Origin: Bacilli bacterium
GTDB lineage: Bacteria > Bacillota_I > Bacilli_A > RF39 > UBA660
Length of the DNA: 64,000 nt
Reading direction: 5' to 3'
Assembly: GCA_017416535.1 (NCBI GenBank)
Contig: JAFQCG010000001.1
Location: forward strand, 139,013 to 203,012
Part shown: one piece after another, positions 11,445 through 46,253 of the stretch
How the letters are laid out: each line of letters opens with the position of its first letter
How positions within the stretch are numbered: position 1 is the first letter of the stretch
Translations under genes and position numbers: made by a program
Notes under the pieces: generated by a model
Seen by the model: the letters and a program-made list of their open reading frames with translations, nothing else
Told to the model about the DNA's origin: nothing
Database searches by the model: none

Positions 11445-12341
11445 TTATCCTCTAGGAATTATATTCATTACTTCTAAAATTCTATTTAAATCACTTGCAT
11501 TGACAAAACTAATTTCAATTTTATTATTTTTTACTTTTACTTTTGTTCCTAGTTTTTCACACATTTCATCTTGAATATATTGATATTCATTAGTTGTATT
11601 TCCTACTCTTTTTATTTTATTTGTTCTTTCATATTGATCTGTAGAATTAGTTAATGATTCTAATTGTCTTACACTTAATCCTTCTTCTACTATTTTATTT
11701 GCTAGTTCTTTTTGTTGAACATTATTATCTAATTTACTAAGTACTCTAGCATGTCCCATAGTGATTTTTCTTTCACTAATTTGTTGTTGAATATCTTCTG
11801 GAAGAGATAATAAACCAAGCATATTTGTAATATGACTTCTACTCTTTCCTAATCTCTTAGCTAATTCTTCTTGTGTTAAAGCTAATGTTTCGATTAATTT
11901 CTTATAAGCTGTCGCTTCTTCCACTGCATTTAGATTTTCTCTTTGTAGATTTTCTAATAATGCAATTTCCATCATTTCTGTATCATTAAAATCTCTAATA
12001 ATAGCTGGAATTTCTTCTAATCCTGCTAAAATTGAAGCTTTTACACGACGTTCTCCAGCAATTATTTCATATCCTTTGATACTTTTTTTAATAATTATAG
12101 GTTGGAAAACACCATGCTCTTTTATTGATGCAGCTAATTCTTGTAGTGCTGATTCATCAAATACTTTTCTTGGCTGATATGGATTGCTTCTTAATTCAGA
12201 TAATTTTACTTTTACGATTTCTTCACTTGGAGTCTCAGTAATTATTTTTTCTTCTACTTTATCATAGGCAATTGGTTCATTGAAAAATAGCTCTTCTAGA
12301 CCTCTTCCTAAAGCTCTTCTTTTTGTATTATTTGTCTCCAT
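11445..12341 (-). CDS. parB: chromosome partitioning protein ParB (Spo0J)
   Basis: RRALGRGLEELF N-terminus, ParB box GERRVKAS, HTH, conserved C-terminus. ATG 12341 chosen (RBS AAGGAAGTGA upstream). Confidence 0.85.
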   Translation of the reverse strand: METNNTKRRALGRGLEELFFNEPIAYDKVEEKIITETPSEEIVKVKLSELRSNPYQPRKVFDESALQELAASIKEHGVFQPIIIKKSIKGYEIIAGERRVKASILAGLEEIPAIIRDFNDTEMMEIALLENLQRENLNAVEEATAYKKLIETLALTQEELAKRLGKSRSHITNMLGLLSLPEDIQQQISERKITMGHARVLSKLDNNVQQKELANKIVEEGLSVRQLESLTNSTDQYERTNKIKRVGNTTNEYQYIQDEMCEKLGTKVKVKNNKIEISFVNASDLNRILEVMNIIPRG

Positions 12342-13116
12342 TTCTTGCAATCACTTCCTTTGCTAAATTGATATATGCTTCAGATCCTCTACTTTTTGGA
12401 TCGTATGCTACAATTGGTTCCCCATGTGATGGAGCTTCTGTTAATCTTACTAGTCTTGGAATTATTGTGTTATAAACTTTTTCTTTAAAGAATTTTCTAA
12501 TGTCATCAACAACTTCAAATCCTAAATTTGTTCTTGAATCAAGCATTGTTAGTAATACTCCTTCAATATCTAATGTTGGATTTAATGTTTTTTGTGCTAG
12601 CATAATTGTTTTTAATAATTGTGTAATACCTTCTAATGCAAAGAATTCACATTGTACTGGAATGATTACTGAGTTTGATGCAGTTAGTGCATTTGTTGTA
12701 ATTATTCCTAGTGAAGGAGGACAATCTAAGATAATATAGTCGAAACTATCAATTATTTCAGCTAAATGAATTTTTAATTGTTCTCCTTTTAAAAATCCAT
12801 TTTCTCTATGACTTTTTTCTACTAGTTCAATATCCAATCCCGCTAAATTAATTGTTGCTGGTAATACGTATAAATTTTTATATTTTGTTTTAATCATTGC
12901 TTCTGTAATCTTACATTCTCCTATTAAAACATCATATACGCTTTTTTCAATATCACCTTTGTTGATTCCTACACCAGTAGTTGTATTTCCTTGAGGGTCT
13001 AAATCAATTAATAATACTTTCTTCCCTAATACTGCTAATGATGCAGAAAGATTGATACTTGTAGTTGTTTTACCAACTCCACCTTTTTGATTTACTAATG
13101 ATATAACCTTTCCCAT
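12328..13116 (-). CDS. parA: chromosome partitioning ATPase ParA (Soj)
   Basis: 262 aa, deviant Walker A KGGVGKTT, LIDLDPQGN. Confidence 0.9.
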   Translation of the reverse strand: MGKVISLVNQKGGVGKTTTSINLSASLAVLGKKVLLIDLDPQGNTTTGVGINKGDIEKSVYDVLIGECKITEAMIKTKYKNLYVLPATINLAGLDIELVEKSHRENGFLKGEQLKIHLAEIIDSFDYIILDCPPSLGIITTNALTASNSVIIPVQCEFFALEGITQLLKTIMLAQKTLNPTLDIEGVLLTMLDSRTNLGFEVVDDIRKFFKEKVYNTIIPRLVRLTEAPSHGEPIVAYDPKSRGSEAYINLAKEVIARNGDK

Positions 13117-13217: not shown

Positions 13218-14567
13218 TTACTTATCTACCTTAATGATTATTTGATATGAATTATCAAAATTCATTTCATCAGCTTGTATCGAAATTCCATTTGCTTTTA
13301 ATTCTGAAATAGTGTCTCTTAACTTTTTCATTGCAGTATCAACATTATATTCTGTTTTAACTGTCATTTCTGGTATTCCCATATTTGTTGCTGCTATATT
13401 TGGAATAAAGTCTGCTGTTTTAAAATAATCTGCGGCCTTTTCTTGTGGCATTACTTTTGTAGCATCATTCTTTACAATTTCTTCTGCTGGTGTTAAGAAT
13501 GCACTTGTTCCTGGAATATTTCCTACAGATGGTCCTGCTCCTAAATTTTGTAAATTTAGTAAACTATCTAAATCTGCTGACGGCATTTTCTTTTCTTCTT
13601 TTGGTTCGCTTATATCAACAGCACTATTTCTTATAGAATTTAAATCTATTGGTGCTACTGGGTTATTAAATTGCATCGGTTCATCATCGTCGTCATCATC
13701 ATCAATTTCTCCGTAATTAATAAACTTAGATGTTTCTGATAATGTATTTGTTGAAGGTATTGTATTTATATCAACAATCGGTGGAACTGATGATGTTTCA
13801 CTAAAACTAGTTGGCTCTGTTGGTTCTTTAATATCCATCGTTGGCATAAGTGGATTTGTGTTTATAAAACTACTTGCTGGTGGTACTGAAATATCAATTG
13901 GTTTATTAATATTTTGATTTTCCATATCACTAGCACCTTCGTTCTTTTCTTCTTTTGGATATAATTGTTTTATTTCTTCCTCTACAGCTCTTACACTCAT
14001 TTTATTACTTATAATTTTCTTTAACATCTCTGTTTGTTTATTATGATCTGGTATATTTAAAAGTGCTCTTGCATGTCTTTCTGATATTTGTTCTTTTAAT
14101 AAGGAATCTTGAACATCATCTGGTAGTGATAATAATCTTAATTTATTAGCTACTGCAGATTGACTTTTTCCCATTGTTTTTGCTAAGTCTTCTTGTGTCA
14201 TTTCATCTATTTCTAGAATTTTTTGGTATGTTCTTGCTTCCTCTATTGGTGTTAAATTTTTTCTTTGTAAATTTTCTAATAAAGCTACTTTTGAACTTTC
14301 TTTATCATCTAGATCTCTTATAATTGCTGGTATTTTTGTTAAACCTGCTAAAGCTGATGCTTTATAACGTCTCTCTCCAGCTATTATTTCATACTTTCCT
14401 TTTACATTGCGGACAATAATTGGTTGAATTACACCATGTTCTTTTATAGATACAGCCAATTCTTTTAGTGCTTTTTCATCAAAAACCTCTCTTGGTTGAA
14501 ATCTGTTAGGTATTATGTCATCTAAATATAATTGGACTACTTGATCATTTGTATTTTCTGTATTCAT
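13218..14567 (-). CDS. noc: nucleoid occlusion protein Noc homolog (ParB paralog) with a long internal low-complexity insertion
   Basis: N-terminal ParB domain (IPNRFQPREVF, GERRYKAS), HTH (MTQEDLAKTMGKSQSAVANKLRLL) and C-terminus AMKKLRDTISELKANGISIQADEMNFDNSYQIIIKVDK, which aligns with the B. subtilis Noc C-terminus. Sits between rsmG and parA as in Bacillus. About 200 aa of P/S/T/D-rich sequence, including DDDDDDDE, is inserted. ATG 14567 has a GAGGGG RBS. Confidence 0.8.
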   Translation of the reverse strand: MNTENTNDQVVQLYLDDIIPNRFQPREVFDEKALKELAVSIKEHGVIQPIIVRNVKGKYEIIAGERRYKASALAGLTKIPAIIRDLDDKESSKVALLENLQRKNLTPIEEARTYQKILEIDEMTQEDLAKTMGKSQSAVANKLRLLSLPDDVQDSLLKEQISERHARALLNIPDHNKQTEMLKKIISNKMSVRAVEEEIKQLYPKEEKNEGASDMENQNINKPIDISVPPASSFINTNPLMPTMDIKEPTEPTSFSETSSVPPIVDINTIPSTNTLSETSKFINYGEIDDDDDDDEPMQFNNPVAPIDLNSIRNSAVDISEPKEEKKMPSADLDSLLNLQNLGAGPSVGNIPGTSAFLTPAEEIVKNDATKVMPQEKAADYFKTADFIPNIAATNMGIPEMTVKTEYNVDTAMKKLRDTISELKANGISIQADEMNFDNSYQIIIKVDK

Positions 14568-20759: not shown

Positions 20760-20885
20760 ACAATATCCACAGGAATGTGGAATACTTAAATAGAGATTGT
20801 TAAAAAAAATCTGTGGAAAATGTGGAAAACTCATTTTTTCTTATATATATCAACATTTTAATAGTGGAAAAAAATGTGGAAATCT
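20760..20885. promoter_or_regulatory. oriC DnaA-box cluster upstream of dnaA
   Basis: At least 6 DnaA-box-like 9-mers (ATATCCACA, TGTGGAATA, 2x TGTGGAAAA in tandem, AGTGGAAAA, TGTGGAAAT). Each is 7-8/9 matches to TTATCCACA / TGTGGATAA. Confidence 0.75.
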
Positions 20886-22538: not shown

Positions 22539-22610
22539 TTTTCCACAGATTGAAATATGAATTTTACTTTGAAAAATAAAGGAAAAAGAGATTTTTAAAC
22601 TTTTTCCACA
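22539..22610. promoter_or_regulatory. DnaA boxes in the dnaA-dnaN intergenic part of oriC
   Basis: TTTTCCACA at 22539-22547 and 22602-22610 (8/9 matches each). Confidence 0.65.
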
Positions 22611-23943: not shown

Positions 23944-24390
23944 ATGAAATATGAAATAAGTAGGGGAACTTTAGCGATTGTTCCTAATGAAAAAGAAAAT
24001 AGTGTAGTATATGAGGATGAGGAAAGATATATCGTAGATGATAAGCCATTTAAAATTATGGAAGATAGTTGTAAGTATTTTGGTAGTACTTACGAAGGAA
24101 GAAAAGAAAGTGCAAAAGATATTTTAGGAGCAGAATATAAAGTTCCTATTGTTGTTGAGGATACTGAAAATTTAGTTATATTTCCAACAACTTCACCATA
24201 TTCAGATGAGTGTGTTTGGATTTCATTAAAAAGATTAAAAAAGTTCGAAAAAGTTGACTCTTTTAATACAAAAATTATATTTGACAATAATAAAGAAATA
24301 ATTGTTCCTTGCTCTTATAGAACAATAGAAAATCAAATATCTAGAGCATCGAGACTTGATTATATTTTACGCATGCGAAAAAGTAGATAA
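23944..24390 (+). CDS. comK: ComK-family competence transcription factor homolog
   Basis: 148 aa. Aligns with B. subtilis ComK over most of its length (MEDSCKYFGSTYEGRKE, VIFPTTSPYSDECVWIS, SYRTIENQ). Confidence 0.7.
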   Translation: MKYEISRGTLAIVPNEKENSVVYEDEERYIVDDKPFKIMEDSCKYFGSTYEGRKESAKDILGAEYKVPIVVEDTENLVIFPTTSPYSDECVWISLKRLKKFEKVDSFNTKIIFDNNKEIIVPCSYRTIENQISRASRLDYILRMRKSR

Positions 24391-27583: not shown

Positions 27584-30064
27584 ATGGATAGATTAGAAAA
27601 AAATAGTATTGTAAAAGAAGTCCAAGACTCTTTCTTAGAATATTCAATGAGTGTTATTGTTGCTCGTGCTTTACCTGACTTGAGGGATGGTTTAAAGCCA
27701 GTTCATAGAAGAATTTTATATTCTATGTACGAGTCTGGTTATACACCTGATAAACCTCATAAAAAGAGTGCAAGAATTGTCGGAGATGTAATGGGTAAAT
27801 ATCACCCACATGGTGATTCTTCTATTTATGAAGCAATGGTAAGAATGGCTCAAGATTTCTCATATCGCTATATGTTAGTTGATGGACATGGTAACTTTGG
27901 TAATATAGAAGGTTACGGGGCTGCGGCAATGCGTTATACAGAGTCTCGTTTATCTAAAATTTCATTAGAATTGCTTAGAAATATTAATAAAGATACAGTT
28001 GATTTTTCTCCTAACTTTGATGAGAGTGAAAGGGAACCAGCTGTATTACCTTCGAGATTTCCTAATATTTTAGTTAATGGAACTACTGGTATAGCTGTAG
28101 GAATGGCAACAAACATTCCACCACATAACTTAGGAGAAGTTATTGATGGGTGCGTTGCTTATATTGATAATCCTGATATTGATGTAGATGGATTAATGAA
28201 ATATATTAAAGGACCTGATTTTCCTACGGGTGCTACAATTTTAGGAAATAGTGGTATAAAGAAAGCATATGAAACTGGAAGAGGTTCAATAACAATTAGA
28301 AGTAAAGCTACTATTGAGGAAAAAAATGGAAAACAATATATTATTGTTGATGAAGTTCCTTATGGTGTTAATACATTAGAATTAAAGAATAAGGTGGCAG
28401 AACTTGTTCATAATAAAACAATTGAAGGAATTGCTGATTACCATTCAGATTTAAAAGATGGAATTAAAATTACAATTACTTTGAAAAAAGATGCAAATGC
28501 TCAAGTTGTTTTAAATAAATTATATAAGCATACTTCATTCCAAACTTCATATGGTATTATTTTCCTTATGTTAGACCAAGGAGTCCCAAAAACATTAGGA
28601 TTAAAGGATATTATTAGTAAATATATTGAATATCAAAAAGAAGTTATTATTAGAAGAACTAGATTTGATCTAGATGTGGCAGAAAAAAGAGTTCATATAT
28701 TAGAGGGTTTAAAAATTGCGTTAGATAATATTGATGCTGTTATCAAATTAATTCGTGCAGCAAAATCTGATGAAGAAGCTAGAAATGGCTTAATGAATAA
28801 CTTTAAATTAAGTGAAGTTCAAGCAAATGCAATTTTGGAAATGAAATTACGTCGTTTAACGGGCTTAGAGCGTGAAAAGATTGAAAATGAACTAAATGAC
28901 TTATTAAAGTTAATTGACGAGTTACGTGCTATTTTAGCTAGTGATGCGAAGATATTAGAAGTTATTAAAAATGAGTTATTAGAAATTAAAGATAAATATG
29001 GAGATGAAAGACGAACAAATATTGATATGACAGCTATTGAATATATCGAAGATGAATCTTTAATTCCTGAAGAAGATATAATTATTACACTAACTAAAAA
29101 TGGTTATATAAAAAGATTAAGATCAGATACTTATAGAACTCAAAATAGAGGAGGAGTTGGAGTTAAGGGTATGGCTACAAATGAAGATGATTTTGTAGAA
29201 CATATGATTTCAATGAAAACTCATGATTATTTATTATTCTTCTCTAATAGAGGTAGAGTATATAGAATGAAAGGTTATGAGGTTCCTGAATATGCAAGAC
29301 AATCTAAAGGGTTACCAATTATTAACTTGTTACCACTAGAAAAAGATGAGAACATTAGTTCGATTGTTGAGTTAGATGCTAACGATGATATTACTAAATA
29401 TTTAATGTTTGCAACACGTAATGGTATTGTTAAACGTACTGAAATAGGTGAGTTTGATAGTATTCGTAAAGGTGGTAAAATTGCAATTGTTTTAAAGGAA
29501 GATGATGAATTAATTTCAGTTAGAAAGACTTGTGGAAAAAATGAAATTGCAATTGGAGCAAGTAATGGACGAATGGTTAGATTTGATGAAAATGAAATTC
29601 GTTCAATGGGTAGAAGTAGTTCTGGAGTTAAGGGAATTGATTTAGATGGTGCGACTGTAGTTGGTGCTGAAGTAGTTAATTCTGGACAATATATTCTAAT
29701 TGTTACTGAAAAAGGTTACGGTAAGAAAACTGTGATTGATGAGTATAGATTAACTCATAGAGGAAGTAAAGGTGTAAGAGCATTTAATGTTACTGAAAAG
29801 AATGGTATGATGTCTGCTCTTAAATGTGTGGATGAAGGTAATGACTATGATGTAATAGTTGTTACTAATAGTGGTATTATCATGAAAATGCCAGGAGAGC
29901 AAATTTCAACTTTAAAACGTGCTACTCAAGGAGTTAGATTAATTAATTTAAAAGATGATCAAACTGTAGCTACTGTTGCAATTGTAGCGAAGGAAGAAGA
30001 ATCAGAAGATTCAGAACTTACTGATACCCCTGTGGATAAAATAAATTCTGAAGTTACAGCTTAA
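27584..30064 (+). CDS. gyrA: DNA gyrase subunit A
   Basis: 826 aa, active-site region [10 protein letters not shown]-terminal beta-pinwheel repeats. Confidence 0.95.
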
Positions 30065-30186
30065 TTAATTAAAAGGATGTTTACATCCTTTTTTTTATTT
30101 TGTTTTTTCATTTTATATAAATTTACCCTTGTGGAAAAAATTATTTTTGTTAATTAATTATTTAAGTAAAATTATTTCCCAAAAAT

Positions 30187-30200
30187 ATTTCCCGGGAAAT
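30187..30200. promoter_or_regulatory. Noc-binding site (NBS) palindrome ATTTCCCGGGAAAT
   Basis: Perfect 14-bp match to the B. subtilis Noc-binding consensus. A half-site-like GGGAAATAAT follows immediately. Confidence 0.6.
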
Positions 30201-30373
30201 AATTTGGGAAATAATTATATTTTTTTACATTTAGTCAATAAATTTATATGTTTTTATTTAAAAAACAGCTGAAATGTGTCAAATTTGACGTCATGATTCA
30301 TTTTAAGAGATTTTTCTATTTTTATACGTATATGTGATAGTTTAATTTTGTTAAAATTAACGTTTTTATTATT

Positions 30374-30389
30374 GGTTTCACGTGAAACT
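30374..30389. promoter_or_regulatory. near-consensus parS site (GGTTTCACGTGAAACT, 14/16)
   Basis: Matches the ParB/Spo0J parS consensus TGTTTCACGTGAAACA at 14 of 16 positions. Confidence 0.55.
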
Positions 30390-30445
30390 TTTTTTATTGT
30401 AATTATTTATTATGTGTCTATAAAACTGTAGAAAATTTTTATTTA

Positions 30446-30461
30446 TGTTTCACGTGAAACA
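30446..30461. promoter_or_regulatory. perfect parS site TGTTTCACGTGAAACA
   Basis: 16/16 match to the Firmicute parS consensus. A perfect DnaA box follows 4 bp downstream. Confidence 0.75.
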
Positions 30462-30464
30462 TTT

Positions 30465-30473
30465 TATCCACAA
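30465..30473. promoter_or_regulatory. perfect DnaA box TTATCCACA
   Basis: 9/9 consensus. Confidence 0.6.
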
Positions 30474-30538
30474 TTTTGTGAATTTTTAAAAATTATATTT
30501 ATATTTATTTTATTAATATATTTTTATGTTTTGATTTT

Positions 30539-30547
30539 TTATCCACA
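30539..30547. promoter_or_regulatory. perfect DnaA box TTATCCACA
   Basis: 9/9 consensus. Confidence 0.6.
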
Positions 30548-30632
30548 TTTGCTGTGCAATTGTAGTTTTTTTGTTAATTATTAATATTTGTTTATATATT
30601 TTAAATAATTATTAAGTATTTTAATTTGTTTA

Positions 30633-30648
30633 TGTTTCACGTGAAACA
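30633..30648. promoter_or_regulatory. perfect parS site TGTTTCACGTGAAACA
   Basis: 16/16. Part of a 29-bp direct repeat TATGTTTCACGTGAAACATTTTATCCACA, also present at 30444-30473. Confidence 0.75.
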
Positions 30649-30650
30649 TT

Positions 30651-30659
30651 TTATCCACA
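30651..30659. promoter_or_regulatory. perfect DnaA box TTATCCACA
   Basis: 9/9 consensus. Confidence 0.6.
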
Positions 30660-30792
30660 GAAATTGTTAATAAGTTTAATATATATATAAAAATCCACTG
30701 TTTTTGTGTATAAATTTCTTTTTCTATAATAAATTTGAATCATTTAAAACTATTTACAAAATTATATTCTTATATTAAAATATATATCGTGC

Positions 30793-30866
30793 AATGGAAG
30801 TGTTTGAACCAGGTCAGGATCGGAAGGTAGCAGCCTTAAGGACCTCCTTCCATGTGCACTTTTTTA
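30793..30866 (+). ncRNA. ffs: signal recognition particle RNA (small, 4.5S-type)
   Basis: ACCAGGUCAGGAUCGGAAGGUAGCAGCCUUAAGG nearly matches the E. coli 4.5S domain IV (ACCAGGUCAGGUCCGGAAGGAAGCAGCCAAGG). It is enclosed by a 12-bp stem (GUGCAAUGGAAG / CUUCCAUGUGCAC) and followed by a U-run. In B. subtilis scr lies next to tadA-dnaX. Confidence 0.7.
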
Positions 30867-30879
30867 TTGGAGTGATTTT

Positions 30880-31377: not shown

Positions 31378-33150
31378 ATGTATCGTGCTTTATATAGAAA
31401 ATATAGACCTCAAGGATTTGAAAGCGTTGTTGGTCAAAATACTATTGTAAAAACGTTACTAAATTCGGTTAAAAATGGTTCTTTTGGACATGCTTACATG
31501 TTTTTTGGACCTCGTGGTGTAGGAAAAACAACGGCTTCTAAAATTTTTGCTAGAGCTATTAATTGTTTGGAACCAATTGATGGTAATGCATGTGGTAAAT
31601 GTTCTAATTGTAGTCATTCTTTTGAAAAAGAGTGTGTTGATATTATAGAAATAGATGCTGCATCTAATAATGGTGTTGATGAAATAAGAGAATTAAAAAA
31701 TAAAATTTCTTTAGTACCTGCTGAACTTAAATATAAGGTATATATAATTGATGAAGTTCATATGTTGTCAATTGGTGCTTTTAATGCACTTCTTAAAACT
31801 TTAGAAGAACCGCCAGAACATGCAATTTTTATTTTAGCAACAACTGATCCTCAAAAAGTTCCTGAAACTATTATTTCAAGATGTCAATGTTTTTCTTTTA
31901 AGAGAATTTCTGATGAAATGATTGTGGATAGACTTAAAACTGTATGTGAAAATGAAAATATTGATATAGATGAAGAAGTTTTAAGGGAAATTGCAATTGC
32001 TTCAGATGGAGGAATGAGAGATTCATTAAGTTCTCTTGATAAATTAATTTCTTATTCTGATAAAAAAATTACAGTTGATGATTTTGCTGAACTAAATGGT
32101 ATGATTACTAAAAAAGATTTAATTGAACTATGTGATAATGTTTTTGAAGGTGATATTGCAAAAGTTTTATTTAAATTGAATAAATTTAATAGTGATGGTA
32201 AAAATTTAATTCAAATTATATTACAATTAATGCATTTTTTACGTAATTCAGTTGTAAATTACTATGTGGAAAACAAAAAATGTAATTATTCTATAGATGA
32301 TATGTTAAAATTAATTAATATTATTAACGAAAATATGTTCGATATTAAAAAGAGTGGTAATCCTAAAATATTTATTGAAATGTTATTAATAAAATATATA
32401 AAAGACACTGGTGGTGACAAAATTATTTCCCAGGAAATAAAAAATGATAATGATTTAAAAAAATCTATAATTACTAGTGATGATAAATTAGGTGAAGATG
32501 ATGATAATTCTTTGGAAAATGAGTCTGATTCTAATAGTGTTGAACTTGATGAAGAGGATGAAGAAGAATTTGATTTTGATAAAGAGTATTCTGACGAAGA
32601 AGAATATAATGATGAATTTATTGAAAAAAACGTTGTGGATAAAGTTGTTTTAGAAGACTCTAATGATGAACAAAGACAAATTATCAATATTGATGAGATA
32701 ATGAAAATAAGAGTTAATAATACTTTAGCATGTGCTAATAAAAATATATTGAACCAAGAAATTGATAATATGAAGTTATTAAACGATTTTACATTTGATC
32801 AAGAAATTGGTTATATTGTATGTAATTTACTTGATTCTAATATTAGAGCTGCTAGCGAAGATAGCATAATTATAAGTTTTGAATATGATTCGATAGTTAA
32901 ACAAAATTTAATGGAATTAGAAAAAATTATATATGTTTATAATAAAATTACTAATTCAAATAAGAAAATCGCTATTATTACTGATGAAGAATGGGAAAAA
33001 GAAAAAAGTAATTACATTAAAAGTATTAAAGATGGTAAGACATACCAAGTTGTGGAAGAACCTAAAGAAATCTATGAAGAAGTTAAAAAAAATGATATAA
33101 TATCTAATAGTGCAATGGAACTATTTGGTGATATTGTAGAAATTAAATAA
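31378..33150 (+). CDS. dnaX: DNA polymerase III subunit gamma/tau
   Basis: 590 aa, Walker A GPRGVGKTT, zinc module CGKCSNC, and an acidic low-complexity linker. Confidence 0.9.
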   Translation: MYRALYRKYRPQGFESVVGQNTIVKTLLNSVKNGSFGHAYMFFGPRGVGKTTASKIFARAINCLEPIDGNACGKCSNCSHSFEKECVDIIEIDAASNNGVDEIRELKNKISLVPAELKYKVYIIDEVHMLSIGAFNALLKTLEEPPEHAIFILATTDPQKVPETIISRCQCFSFKRISDEMIVDRLKTVCENENIDIDEEVLREIAIASDGGMRDSLSSLDKLISYSDKKITVDDFAELNGMITKKDLIELCDNVFEGDIAKVLFKLNKFNSDGKNLIQIILQLMHFLRNSVVNYYVENKKCNYSIDDMLKLINIINENMFDIKKSGNPKIFIEMLLIKYIKDTGGDKIISQEIKNDNDLKKSIITSDDKLGEDDDNSLENESDSNSVELDEEDEEEFDFDKEYSDEEEYNDEFIEKNVVDKVVLEDSNDEQRQIINIDEIMKIRVNNTLACANKNILNQEIDNMKLLNDFTFDQEIGYIVCNLLDSNIRAASEDSIIISFEYDSIVKQNLMELEKIIYVYNKITNSNKKIAIITDEEWEKEKSNYIKSIKDGKTYQVVEEPKEIYEEVKKNDIISNSAMELFGDIVEIK

Positions 33151-43239: not shown

Positions 43240-43815
43240 ATGGTTTTTGGATCAGTTAAAGGATATGGTATTCAACAAATATCTTTAAAGATGTTAGAGA
43301 ATAAAAAGTGGAATTTTAGTGAATTAGAGATAAAAGATTCTGATATAAAAAATGAAATTAAATCTGTAATAGAAAATGGGGGAACTGTCTTTGCTTTAGA
43401 AAAAAAGAAGATATTTAAAGCCGTTTATTTATTTAAATTAGTTAATGATAGTGATGATAAATATTTATCTTTTGCTAAGAAAATTGTATTAGATGAAATT
43501 ATTGAGGATGCTATTAAAGAGTTTGAAGATGATATGACTACTTTATTAGGTGAGGCGGTTGCTGGTGAAGAAGTGTCTAAAGTTATTTGGGGAGAAAAGG
43601 AAATAGAATTATCAAAAATAAAAATTGGTAAATTAGAAATACCATTATCAATTATTTGGATGTTAATGGGTATTTTGTTCTGGTTATTATTTGATGACTT
43701 TATGTGGTTTGTGATTTATTTATGTATTGGGGTATCTTCTGGATATGCTGTTAAAATTAATGAACCAAAGAGAAAATTAAAAAAGAGTAAGAAAAAGACT
43801 AAAGAAAAGAAATAG
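43240..43815 (+). CDS. hypothetical protein: N-terminal soluble domain, two C-terminal TM helices, basic tail
   Basis: 191 aa. TM segments IIWMLMGILFWLLF / FVIYLCIGVSSGYAV, tail KRKLKKSKKKTKEKK. Confidence 0.5.
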   Translation: MVFGSVKGYGIQQISLKMLENKKWNFSELEIKDSDIKNEIKSVIENGGTVFALEKKKIFKAVYLFKLVNDSDDKYLSFAKKIVLDEIIEDAIKEFEDDMTTLLGEAVAGEEVSKVIWGEKEIELSKIKIGKLEIPLSIIWMLMGILFWLLFDDFMWFVIYLCIGVSSGYAVKINEPKRKLKKSKKKTKEKK

Positions 43816-43839: not shown

Positions 43840-43853
43840 ATTTCCCGGGAAAT
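43840..43853. promoter_or_regulatory. Noc-binding site (NBS) palindrome ATTTCCCGGGAAAT in the spoVT upstream region
   Basis: Perfect 14-mer, identical to the site at 30187. It lies 29 bp upstream of the spoVT start. Confidence 0.6.
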
Positions 43854-43881
43854 AATATTTTTAGGGAAAGTGAGGAATAAT

Positions 43882-44412
43882 ATGAAGTCAACAGGTGTTG
43901 TTAGAAGAGTAGATGATTTAGGAAGAATTGTTATTCCAAAAGAAATAAGAAGAACTCTTAGAATTAGAGATGGTGAAGAGTTAGAAATATTTGTAGATGA
44001 CGAAGCTATCATTTTAAAAAAATTTTCAAATGTCGCAGATTTAGGTGATGTATCAAAAAAAATTGTTGATGTTGTAAGTTCTTTTATTGGTAAGACTGTG
44101 TTAGTTACGGATAGAGATACATTTATTACTGGAAGTGGTGAGTTAAAGAAAAAATATTTAAATAAGGAGATATCTAGTTATATTGAAGATATTATGTCTA
44201 ATCGTAATGTTGTGGTTCAGAAGAATATTGGAAATATTCAGTTGGGTGATGTTTCTGGCGAAATGTATTCTTATATTATTAATCCTATTATTAGTTTTGG
44301 TGATGTCATTGGGTCTGTTATTGTGATATCTACTAGTAGTGATATTTCTGAATTTGATGTTACTATTACTGGAATGATTACACAATTTTTAGGAAAATAT
44401 GTTGAAGATTAA
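43882..44412 (+). CDS. spoVT: stage V sporulation protein T (AbrB-N domain + GAF-like domain)
   Basis: MKSTGVVRRVDDLGRIVIPKEIRRTLRIRDGEELEIFVD nearly matches B. subtilis SpoVT. The C-terminal domain is also conserved. Lies downstream of mfd, as in Bacillus. Confidence 0.8.
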   Translation: MKSTGVVRRVDDLGRIVIPKEIRRTLRIRDGEELEIFVDDEAIILKKFSNVADLGDVSKKIVDVVSSFIGKTVLVTDRDTFITGSGELKKKYLNKEISSYIEDIMSNRNVVVQKNIGNIQLGDVSGEMYSYIINPIISFGDVIGSVIVISTSSDISEFDVTITGMITQFLGKYVED

Positions 44413-44439: not shown

Positions 44440-44705
44440 ACTTTTTAAATGTGTTGATGAAGAGTCTATAGCAAAACGTTTATTTTTAGAGACCTCGGTT
44501 AGGTGAAAGCGAGGAATAGATTAAGTTATATGATATGGCTTCTGAACTACTATATCGATATGTAGGTATAGTCGTAGATAGGCGTTAACTATTTAAGTGT
44601 ATAATATCAAATTATTATGAAATAAGGTGGTACCGCGAAAATCTTCGTCCTTATGTCGTAATAATTTTTTTTTGATATTTAATATGATTAAAGGGAGTGA
44701 TTTTG
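44440..44705 (+). promoter_or_regulatory. putative T-box riboswitch leader of metS
   Basis: AAUAAGGUGGUACCGCG at 44621-44637 matches the T-box core AAUUAGGGUGGUACCGCG. About 250 nt of structured leader precede the aminoacyl-tRNA synthetase gene. The specifier and terminator were not resolved by eye. Confidence 0.55.
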
Positions 44706-46253
44706 ATGGCAGAAAAATATTATATTTCTACTGCAATTGCTTATACTTCAGGTAAACCTCATATTGGGAATACTTATGAGATTGTTTTAGCAGATGCAAT
44801 TGCGAGATGGAAAAGATTAAAAGGTTATGATGTTTATTTTCAAACTGGAACAGATGAACATGGTATTAAAATTGAGGAGAAAGCTGCAGCAGCTGGTGTT
44901 GAACCACAATCATTTGTTGATGATGTAGCTGGAGAAATTAAACGTATTTGGGATTTAATGAATACAAGTTATGATCGTTTTGTTAGAACTACTGATAAGC
45001 GACATAAAGAAGTTGTTCAACATATTTTTAAGAAAATGTATGATAAAGGAGATATTTACAAAGGTGAATACAAGGGACTTTATTGTACTCCTTGTGAATC
45101 TTTTTGGACTGAGTCTCAATTAGTTGATGGTAAGTGTCCTGATTGTGGAAGAGATGTTCATGAGCAAAGTGAGGAAGCATATTTCTTTAAATTAAGTAAT
45201 TATCAAGAAAAACTTGAAAAGTACATTGAGGAACATCCTGATTTTATTCAACCTGTGGCACGTAAGAATGAAATGTTAAATAACTTTATCAAACCTGGAC
45301 TACAAGATTTATGTGTTTCACGTACAACATTAAAATGGGGAATTCCAGTAGATTTTGATCCTAAGCATGTTGTATATGTCTGGCTAGATGCATTAACAAA
45401 TTATATTACTAATATAGGATATGATGTAGATAATGCAAATGAAGAATTTAAAAAACTTTGGCCAGCAGACTTACATTTGATTGGAAAAGATATTATTCGT
45501 TTCCATACTATCTATTGGCCTTGTTTCTTATGGTCTTTAGATTTAGAATTACCTAAGAAAGTTTTTGGACACCCTTGGTTATTAACTAGTAGTGATAAGA
45601 TGAGTAAGTCTAAAGGAAATGTTATTTATGCTGACGATTTAGTTGATAAGTTTGGATTAGATGCAGTTAGATTCTATTTATTACATGAAATTCCATTTGC
45701 AAGTGATGGTAATATTACTTATGATTTATTAATTGAAAGAGTTAATAGTGAGTTGGCAAATGTATTAGGTAATTTAGTTCAAAGAACTATTTCTATGGGA
45801 AATAAATATTTTGAGGGAAAAGTTACTAACAAGAAGGTTAATGGAGAAGTAGATGAGGTATTTATTAATAGTATTAATGAATTAGATGGTTTAGTTACTG
45901 CTAAAATGGATGAATTGCAAGTGGCTGATGCTATGACTGAAATCTTTAATGTTTTACGTGCTTCTAATAAGTATATTGATGATACTATGCCTTGGGCTTT
46001 AGCTAAAGATGAAACTCAACAAGATAGATTGGAAACTGTTTTATATAACTTACTTGAATCTATTAGAGTATGTGGTTCTATGTTAGAAGCATTTATGCCA
46101 GATACAAGTGCTAGTGTTTTAAGTCAAATTAATAGCACAGATAAATCTTATACATTTAATGAAAATAGTTCTTATGAATTAGGACAACCTAGTCCTTTGT
46201 TCCAAAGAATTGATCGTGATAAATTTATTGCAGAACATAATTTAGAAGTGTAA
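44706..46253 (+). CDS. metG: methionine--tRNA ligase (short form, no C-terminal tRNA-binding extension)
   Basis: HIGH-like PHIGNTYE, KMSKS, zinc knuckle CTPCESF...CPDCG. Confidence 0.9.
   Translation: MAEKYYISTAIAYTSGKPHIGNTYEIVLADAIARWKRLKGYDVYFQTGTDEHGIKIEEKAAAAGVEPQSFVDDVAGEIKRIWDLMNTSYDRFVRTTDKRHKEVVQHIFKKMYDKGDIYKGEYKGLYCTPCESFWTESQLVDGKCPDCGRDVHEQSEEAYFFKLSNYQEKLEKYIEEHPDFIQPVARKNEMLNNFIKPGLQDLCVSRTTLKWGIPVDFDPKHVVYVWLDALTNYITNIGYDVDNANEEFKKLWPADLHLIGKDIIRFHTIYWPCFLWSLDLELPKKVFGHPWLLTSSDKMSKSKGNVIYADDLVDKFGLDAVRFYLLHEIPFASDGNITYDLLIERVNSELANVLGNLVQRTISMGNKYFEGKVTNKKVNGEVDEVFINSINELDGLVTAKMDELQVADAMTEIFNVLRASNKYIDDTMPWALAKDETQQDRLETVLYNLLESIRVCGSMLEAFMPDTSASVLSQINSTDKSYTFNENSSYELGQPSPLFQRIDRDKFIAEHNLEV

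Follow-up and report, generated by a model that had tools for sequence, protein, structure and literature searches.

The 64,000-nucleotide stretch of contig JAFQCG010000001.1 analysed here (the window) comes from the genome of a Bacilli bacterium, and its positions 30065–30790 form the spacer between the gyrA stop codon and ffs, the gene for the signal recognition particle (SRP) RNA. This spacer is probably a centromere-like loading region for ParB, about 9.5 kb from the replication origin, that would also recruit DnaA and a Noc-like clamp. The analysis covered the 64 kb of this genome and pieces of about 20 kb from its relatives. As a first-pass annotation had stated, the spacer was non-coding and very AT-rich. 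No credible open reading frame (ORF) was present in it, with none of 48 aa or more and low-complexity frames only, and GC content in the profile of 19–32 kb reached its minimum, 15.5%, at 30400–30700.

Direct reading and a pattern scan for TGTTNCACGTGAAACA, the 16-bp inverted-repeat consensus of parS, located the two perfect sites and the 14/16 variant described earlier. The perfect sites (TGTTTCACGTGAAACA) lie at 30446–30461 and 30633–30648. The variant, parS-1 (GGTTTCACGTGAAACT, 30374–30389), retains a perfect 14-bp core palindrome and has no adjoining DnaA box. With up to three mismatches allowed, four matches were found in the window against 0.37 expected, and none of 100 shuffles reached four. 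The sole match outside the spacer, at 45314, had two mismatches and fell within an ORF (44697–46253). Both perfect sites are followed by a perfect DnaA box (TTATCCACA) on the plus strand, giving composite module 1 (30446–30472, with the box at 30464–30472) and composite module 2 (30633–30659, box at 30651–30659). The intervening gap is 2 nt in each case, not the 4 bp first reported. parS and box lie in a directly repeated unit, as had been noticed, which spans 35 nt and is present in two copies 187 bp apart with 97% identity.

DNA of this composition can produce motifs by chance, and about 25 one-mismatch DnaA boxes would be expected per window from AT-rich sequence. For perfect GC-containing palindromes of 16 or 14 nt, however, the expectation is below 1e-3 per window, and they were observed repeatedly. 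No shuffle reached the observed counts, and the sites were conserved over 49 related loci. Chance matching is refuted by these figures, and we give it practically no weight.

Relatives were identified by a scan with GyrA, which returned metagenome-assembled genomes of uncultured 'Bacilli' and 'Tenericutes' from the guts of animals and humans, with GyrA identities of 60–87%, one of them a circular genome of 1.52 Mb; cultured Bacillales and Erysipelotrichaceae had GyrA identities of 60% or less. A scan with DnaA added metagenome contigs covering both the parB/noc genes and the spacer. The gene order dnaA-dnaN-recF-gyrB-gyrA-[array]-ffs-tadA-dnaX was kept in relatives across the range of 60–87% GyrA identity. 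Densities in the gyrA–dnaX interval were compared with those in 0.93 Mb of flanking DNA for 49 related loci (referred to below by L numbers), many of which are akin, so that the counts are not independent. The parS core occurred at 2.29 per kb in the interval and 0.0043 per kb outside, a 530-fold difference. The Noc-binding site (NBS) occurred at 1.27 and 0.015 per kb (84-fold), and the perfect DnaA box at 0.375 and 0.086 per kb (4.4-fold). Expressed as loci, the interval contained parS in 44/49, an NBS in 36/49, both in 33 and a perfect DnaA box in 16/49. A de novo search for palindromes in the 49 loci returned parS, including the variant GTTCCACGTGGAAC, and the NBS as the only GC-containing families enriched. 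The variant was used by fourteen loci.

A ParB–Soj pair is encoded about 18 kb from the spacer. The upstream minus-strand order is rsmG, a Noc-like gene, soj and parB, with parB (spo0J) at 11445–12341 (298 aa) and soj (parA) at 12328–13116 (262 aa). ParB carries the motif LGRGL, which binds and activates ParA, together with the CTP motifs GERRxKA (here GERRVKA) and ENLQR. The residues that set DNA specificity were read by alignment to solved structures; they are R-T-A-G in ParB and Q-K-K-R in Noc, and the parS type shows an invariant R173 and a preference for G201, with tolerance at the remaining two positions (Jalal et al. 2020, PMC7383237). The ParB of the window has R-M-S-G, which includes the equivalents of R173 and G201 and is of the parS type. 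ParB, Soj and the Noc-like protein, long and with a short N-terminus, are encoded at every locus that reaches far enough. For the Noc-like gene this was established by tblastn, a regular expression for the specificity residues having missed some loci. What the analysis shows is thus a set of sites that exceed chance and are conserved, together with cognate genes whose products have the specificity residues to match. A ParB/SMC loading platform had been among the roles first proposed for the spacer. Loading of ParB is strongly supported, because parS is concentrated 530-fold and a cognate ParB–Soj pair is encoded; recruitment of SMC is a step that we infer.

DnaA boxes were the second component of the spacer. 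Perfect plus-strand boxes start at 30464, 30539 and 30651, and the scan confirmed that the one at 30539–30547, already noted, stands alone between the two composite modules. A fourth perfect box lies on the minus strand within the last gyrA codons (30031–30039, top strand TGTGGATAA) and, together with 30648–30660, makes up a perfect inverted repeat of 13 nt. The minus-strand variant TTTTCCACA at 30130–30138 (top strand TGTGGAAAA) occupies a conserved position, at which L081 and L083 have a perfect TGTGGATAA, 3′ of the terminator. Positions 30031–30659 therefore hold four copies of TTATCCACA and one of TTTTCCACA, or five matches to WWWTCCACA in 630 bp. A one-mismatch box, TTATACACA, on the minus strand at 30705–30713 is a weak candidate. 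In the whole window, seven perfect boxes were counted against 0.68 expected, a number that no shuffle reached, and WWWTCCACA occurred 34 times against 8.1 expected. Since clusters upstream of dnaA and in the dnaA–dnaN spacer are already present, the gyrA–ffs spacer is a third DnaA-box cluster, outside oriC. As a sequence feature the auxiliary cluster envisaged in the first-pass annotation is supported.

The position of these boxes relative to parS was not random. Of 285 distinct flanks, 21 had WWWTCCACA 0–7 nt outward of parS, whereas shuffling the flanks gave an expectation of 0.18. This arrangement, a composite of the module 1 type, was shared by the window with L001, L002, L081, L094/095, L106 and L127/128. 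Module 2 is followed by GAAATTGTTAATAA, and the same stretch is found 3′ of the box in L002 and L081. L081 and L083, the closest genomes after those of the same species (89% DnaA identity), have the whole layout in common with the window: terminator, TGTGGATAA, NBS with an extra half-site, modules of the form parS::TTATCCACAG…, and ffs. In a second strain of the same species, 26/746 columns were variant, none of them in a parS site, a DnaA box or the NBS. The composite repeat is thus conserved in relatives, and these data indicate that the parS::DnaA-box fusion is limited to one sub-clade and is not accidental.

One could instead regard the boxes as transcriptional operators, acting on ffs–tadA–dnaX–ybaB–recR or on read-through from gyrA, with the closeness of parS incidental. 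At several clusters of DnaA boxes in B. subtilis, DnaA serves as a transcription factor (PMC3245932); some 100 bp past the last box there is a good promoter-like site for ffs, and a replisome gene, dnaX, is found downstream. The boxes, however, are clear of the predicted promoter, and for two of them the constant spacing is the 2 nt to parS and not a distance to the promoter. Among relatives the box stays within 0–7 nt of parS wherever parS lies in arrays of 0.8–2 kb. An operator function without relation to parS is accordingly quite improbable.

The NBS was the third component. The perfect ATTTCCCGGGAAAT previously noted at 30187 was confirmed by the scan at 30187–30200, and a second perfect copy was found at 43840–43853; about 1e-4 perfect copies are expected per window, as estimated from base composition. 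The spacer copy is embedded in a nested palindrome (30173–30213) made up of the 16-mer TATTTCCCGGGAAATA at 30186–30201 and the half-sites TATTTCCC (30173–30180) and GGGAAATA (30206–30213). The NBS with its downstream GGGAAATA half-site also occurs in L002, L081, L083 and L127. The second copy is intergenic, with ORFs 43240–43815 and 43870–44412 on either side, and a one-mismatch site, ATTTCCCAGGAAAT, lies at 32425–32438 within dnaX; with these copies the NBS is also scattered beyond the spacer. The main finding, which lay beyond the view of the first-pass annotation, is the conserved association of the NBS with parS in this interval throughout the clade.

This partnership was most evident in tandem arrays. 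Strict alternation of parS and NBS was found in L003 (3819–4307, eight parS and eight NBS, period 64 bp), L004 (12474–13172, six and six, 125 bp), L015 (13110–13749, eight parS and seven NBS, 82 bp) and L020 (2843–3182, four parS and five NBS, 72–73 bp). The sequences between the sites are unrelated from one array to the next, which argues for independent amplifications. Within L003 and L015, the two arrays used for the conservation test (L004 and L020 were left out), variation was 3–4 times lower in parS and NBS than in the sequences between them (Fisher p = 0.0004 and 0.005, respectively). Judged from this pattern, both motifs look to be under selection inside the arrays. Each L015 unit also has CAGTGGAAAAAA, which is near a DnaA box.

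The Noc-like gene (13218–14567, minus strand) encodes a ParB paralogue of 449 aa. It has the GERRxKA and ENLQR motifs in common with ParB; LGRGL is found in ParB only. Its specificity residues are Q-K-S-R, three of four being of the NBS type with S at position 184, and relatives have Q-K-S/A/T-R. The protein starts MNTENTNDQVV, and the ribosome-binding site suits that ATG; 17 residues precede PNRFQPR, a short N-terminus common to 19 homologues. An acidic linker of about 200 aa, in which Pro, Ser and Thr are abundant, leads to a Noc-like C-terminal domain. Motifs kept in the linkers of the 19 homologues (SFINxNPLxPT, KFINYGEI with an acidic run, ADLDSLLNL, FLTPAEEIVK and DYF) look like partner-binding motifs.

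Several observations weigh against assigning the three site types to one joint element. Most relatives have an array without DnaA boxes, and in L009, L010 and L013 the order is reversed (TTATCCACA–1 nt–parS). Because boxes are absent or reversed in relatives, no single geometry fits all loci. A one-sided roadblock, with the box always origin-distal of parS, does not suit L009, L010 and L013. Some arrays consist of parS alone: L007 and L012 have no NBS in the array, and L006 has one flanking NBS. Amplification of parS could have carried along some of the NBS copies in the tandem arrays. The Noc-like protein is also atypical. It scored below the cut-off of NCBIfam TIGR04285 (296.4 against 315 bits, residues 14–229 matched), and it has no N-terminal amphipathic membrane-targeting helix, since the start supported by the ribosome-binding site leaves just 17 residues before PNRFQPR. 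R or K prevails at position 184 in NBS-specific variants (PMC7383237). With a score below cut-off, no helix and S for K at one residue, binding of the NBS by this protein is plausible but not certain. More generally, the reading is based on sequence and concerns an uncultured gut bacterium, and our view spans 64 kb, so that the genome may contain further parS sites or a different distribution of NBS elsewhere.

From such observations it could be argued that parS is functional and that no shared function unites the NBS and the DnaA boxes, these having collected in one of the rare long non-coding stretches that a compact genome has near its origin, with the NBS of the arrays as passengers. The parS-only arrays, the NBS copies outside the array (one in the window, at 43840, and 14 from the flanking DNA of relatives, beside 78 perfect cores in their gyrA–dnaX intervals) and the restriction of DnaA boxes in the interval to 16/49 loci would all fit. 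On the other hand, the NBS is 84 times denser in the interval than in flanks that themselves include other intergenic regions. The NBS is present in each of at least four arrays whose periods differ and whose spacers are unrelated, the NBS columns in arrays are conserved like those of parS and 3–4 times better than the spacers, and boxes lie 0–7 nt from parS far more often than by chance. Independent accumulation of the sites is thus unlikely, and recruitment of ParB, DnaA and the Noc-like protein to one region is the reading we prefer.

The spacer had also been proposed as part of the true replication origin. To locate the origin, GC and AT skew were examined at 2-kb and 200-bp resolution. 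The minimum of cumulative GC skew, the change in AT skew and the switch in gene orientation all fell at about 20.6–20.8 kb, beside dnaA, and the genes from dnaA to gyrA had the same positive skew as those to the right of the array. Five WWWTCCACA boxes upstream of dnaA (20763–20883), at the GC-skew minimum, are probably the left part of oriC; all are variants (ATATCCACA, TATTCCACA, TTTTCCACA twice and ATTTCCACA). Two TTTTCCACA boxes on the plus strand of the dnaA–dnaN spacer (22539–22610, starting at 22539 and 22602) are probably its right, unwinding part. The box at 22602 is followed by an A/T trinucleotide run, GTA ATA ATA TAA ATA ATT, and 38 bp separate the last box from the dnaN start codon. 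The evidence is strong, but not absolute since skew and coding strand are confounded here, that oriC is bipartite around dnaA, with the array about 9.5 kb to its right.

An origin in the gyrA–ffs spacer would make that spacer the AT-rich unwinding element, with parS merely embedded in it. Such a role would account for the five boxes, four of them perfect, where those beside dnaA are all variants; for the left boxes (TGTGGA..) and right boxes (TTATCCACA) facing each other; and for the GC content of 15.5% at 30400–30700, in which A/T runs could give a loose DnaA-trio pattern. The dnaA–dnaN spacer, moreover, offers only its 38 bp before the dnaN start. The criterion for the basal unwinding system (BUS) of oriC calls for at least three DnaA-trios within 16 bp of a DnaA box (PMC8287927). 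A/T trinucleotide runs, however, follow boxes in both spacers and do not discriminate at 82–85% A+T, and scoring of trios was dropped because any frame in DNA of 84% A+T yields trio-like runs, which are therefore uninformative. Against an origin in the spacer, the skew and orientation switch is at 20.6–20.8 kb and the array at 30.1–30.8 kb, box clusters flank dnaA as in other Firmicutes, and a perfect box is found in the interval at just 16/49 related loci. L003, L004, L020 and others keep the array without a DnaA box and have perfect boxes upstream of dnaA. We therefore discard the earlier proposal, which we hold to be very improbable. The contrast it drew between perfect boxes in the spacer and degenerate ones at dnaA is real, though its meaning is uncertain. 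The parS-adjoining boxes of sister genomes are themselves variants (TTTTCCACA, ATTTCCACA or TAATCCACA), so that the contrast may not reflect a hierarchy of affinity.

For the preferred reading, a centromere-like region near the origin, all binding, spreading, SMC loading and regulatory effect are what we infer by analogy with characterized systems. ParB would nucleate on the three parS palindromes, close into CTP-bound sliding clamps and spread over neighbouring kilobases, a range that would include oriC; spreading of about 15 kb has been quoted (PMC9242446). It would then work with Soj and probably load SMC. DnaA on high-affinity boxes would be kept beside the ParB–Soj machinery and, as two boxes abut parS, would be in contact or in steric competition with ParB. 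The box cluster could act as a DnaA sink or as a point of cross-talk coupling initiation and segregation, and bound DnaA could stop ParB clamps from escaping on one side. The NBS would load the Noc-like paralogue, producing an origin-proximal complex of two paralogous clamps. Noc needs a 10-aa amphipathic membrane-targeting helix for nucleoid occlusion (PMC8429893). Since the protein encoded here has no such helix, a role in organizing the origin region, or in recruiting a partner through the linker motifs, is more likely than classical nucleoid occlusion.

A more elaborate version of this scheme can be put forward tentatively, and we consider it possible but less than probable. The centromere of this clade of gut Bacilli with small genomes would be a hybrid platform, on which two paralogous CTP-dependent clamps, ParB and a Noc-like protein with no membrane helix, load next to each other from interleaved parS and NBS, with DnaA docked 2 nt from each parS in the lineage of the window. 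The Noc paralogue would have been re-purposed from dispersed nucleoid occlusion to organization of the centromere or origin, its linker motifs would recruit a partner, and initiator and segregation would be coupled by site architecture.

Each of the site types is known from other bacteria. The spacer resembles the origin-proximal parS regions of ParABS systems (B. subtilis Spo0J/Soj, and the clusters of Caulobacter, Pseudomonas and Corynebacterium) in its 16-bp TGTTNCACGTGAAACA sites, its location within about 10 kb of oriC and the nearby ParB and Soj genes. It departs from their norm in that all detectable parS sites of the window lie in one spacer after gyrA and none in parB, where no parS-like sequence with up to three mismatches was found (11445–12350). 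In B. subtilis, spo0J contains a parS site, and parS sites are dispersed over the origin-proximal region. Relatives depart further, with tandem arrays of up to eight parS sites and, in L012, parS in frame in dnaX. There, at 14441–14546, three sites 45 bp apart lie in a variable dnaX linker and are translated as a repeated …NV(S/P)R(G/E)T…, placing centromere sites within coding repeats.

The DnaA boxes have two precedents. In B. subtilis, DnaA-box clusters near oriC restrain initiation and act with Spo0J/Soj on DnaA (Okumura et al. 2012, PMC3245932). The spacer is similar, on sequence, to those clusters, having consensus boxes in an oriC-proximal intergenic region, but in its modules box and parS are fused, only 2 nt apart, in an arrangement that we did not find reported for B. 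subtilis. DnaA also binds the centromere of Caulobacter crescentus (Mera, Kalogeraki & Shapiro 2014, as reviewed in PMC6399470), where DnaA boxes within the parS region link initiator and segregation, as they may here. The present case differs in phylum, in having no PopZ-type polar system and in its repeated parS::box module, and the likeness would be convergent and not by descent.

The NBS core of 14 bp is identical to that of the Noc–NBS systems of B. subtilis and S. aureus (PMC8429893, PMC7383237, PMC5540599), the gene holds the same rsmG–noc–soj–parB position, and the paralogue keeps NBS-type residues (Q, K, R) and the CTP motifs. In those species NBS are spread across the chromosome's origin-proximal half to two-thirds, and Noc of S. 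aureus restrains initiation (PMC5540599). An absence of NBS close to the terminus is a further trait of that system; the DNA covered here was origin-proximal. Here, unlike there, NBS are clustered with parS, interleaved with it in relatives and not only dispersed, and the protein differs from Noc by the missing 10-aa membrane helix, the long linker with conserved motifs and the sub-cut-off score. A looser analogy is offered by RacA–ram of B. subtilis and RicO–ricS of S. aureus (bioRxiv 10.64898/2026.03.06.710092), in which a second DNA-binding protein has origin-proximal sites; those proteins and motifs are unrelated to the ones described here, and the Noc-like protein showed no element identifiable as membrane- or pole-binding. 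Neither interleaving of NBS and parS nor parS::DnaA-box modules in Firmicutes were found in the full-text literature searched, which excluded most subscription journals. In principle the element is thus a centromere of the usual sort; what sets it apart is its composite architecture, unusual and conserved, and a Noc paralogue that is not typical.

The coupling of initiation, segregation and division is known mainly from a few model species, in which parS, DnaA-box clusters and NBS are separate and dispersed. With the three site types within a few hundred bp, competition or cooperation between ParB and DnaA on adjoining sites becomes testable. Co-location of parS and NBS raises the question of whether cross-talk is avoided when paralogous CTP clamps load in one common zone, and the helix-less protein that of what Noc does without a membrane anchor. 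The arrays also provide a practical marker of the origin-proximal centromere in these uncultured genomes.

The element is bounded on both sides. On the left, gyrA (27584–30064) is followed by an intrinsic terminator on the plus strand (30071–30092, a stem-loop and then a T-run). On the right, a promoter-like site for ffs (TTTACA-17-TAAAAT, 30753–30781, plus strand), about 100 bp downstream of the last DnaA box, and the Rfam-defined ffs gene (30783–30868, plus strand) together occupy 30753–30868. The Rfam scan of the spacer returned ffs as the sole match; a hit to a miRNA model at 30168–30216 was a chance match to the NBS palindrome, and a terminator predicted at 30186–30213 is the same nested palindrome, unconvincing as a terminator. 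Overlapping palindromes placed at 30283–30297 in the first-pass annotation are present, at 30278–30289 (GTCAAATTTGAC) and 30286–30293 (TGACGTCA). Comparison gave them no support as a third type of site, as they were found only in strains of the same species (the window, L161 and L162) and were absent from L081, L083, L001 and L002; they may be a chance match or the site of a species-specific regulator.

The surrounding genes are arranged rnpA–rpmH / dnaA–dnaN–(ComK-like)–recF–gyrB–gyrA–[spacer]–ffs–tadA–dnaX–ybaB–recR. The ComK-like gene is an ORF of 148 aa (23944–24390, plus strand) between dnaN and recF, at the position of yaaA in B. subtilis; it has a precomputed Pfam match to ComK (PF06338) on identical contigs and no NCBIfam match. 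Further downstream, a T-box leader (Rfam RF00230, 113 bits) occupies 44445–44655 on the plus strand, upstream of the 518-aa ORF at 44697–46253.

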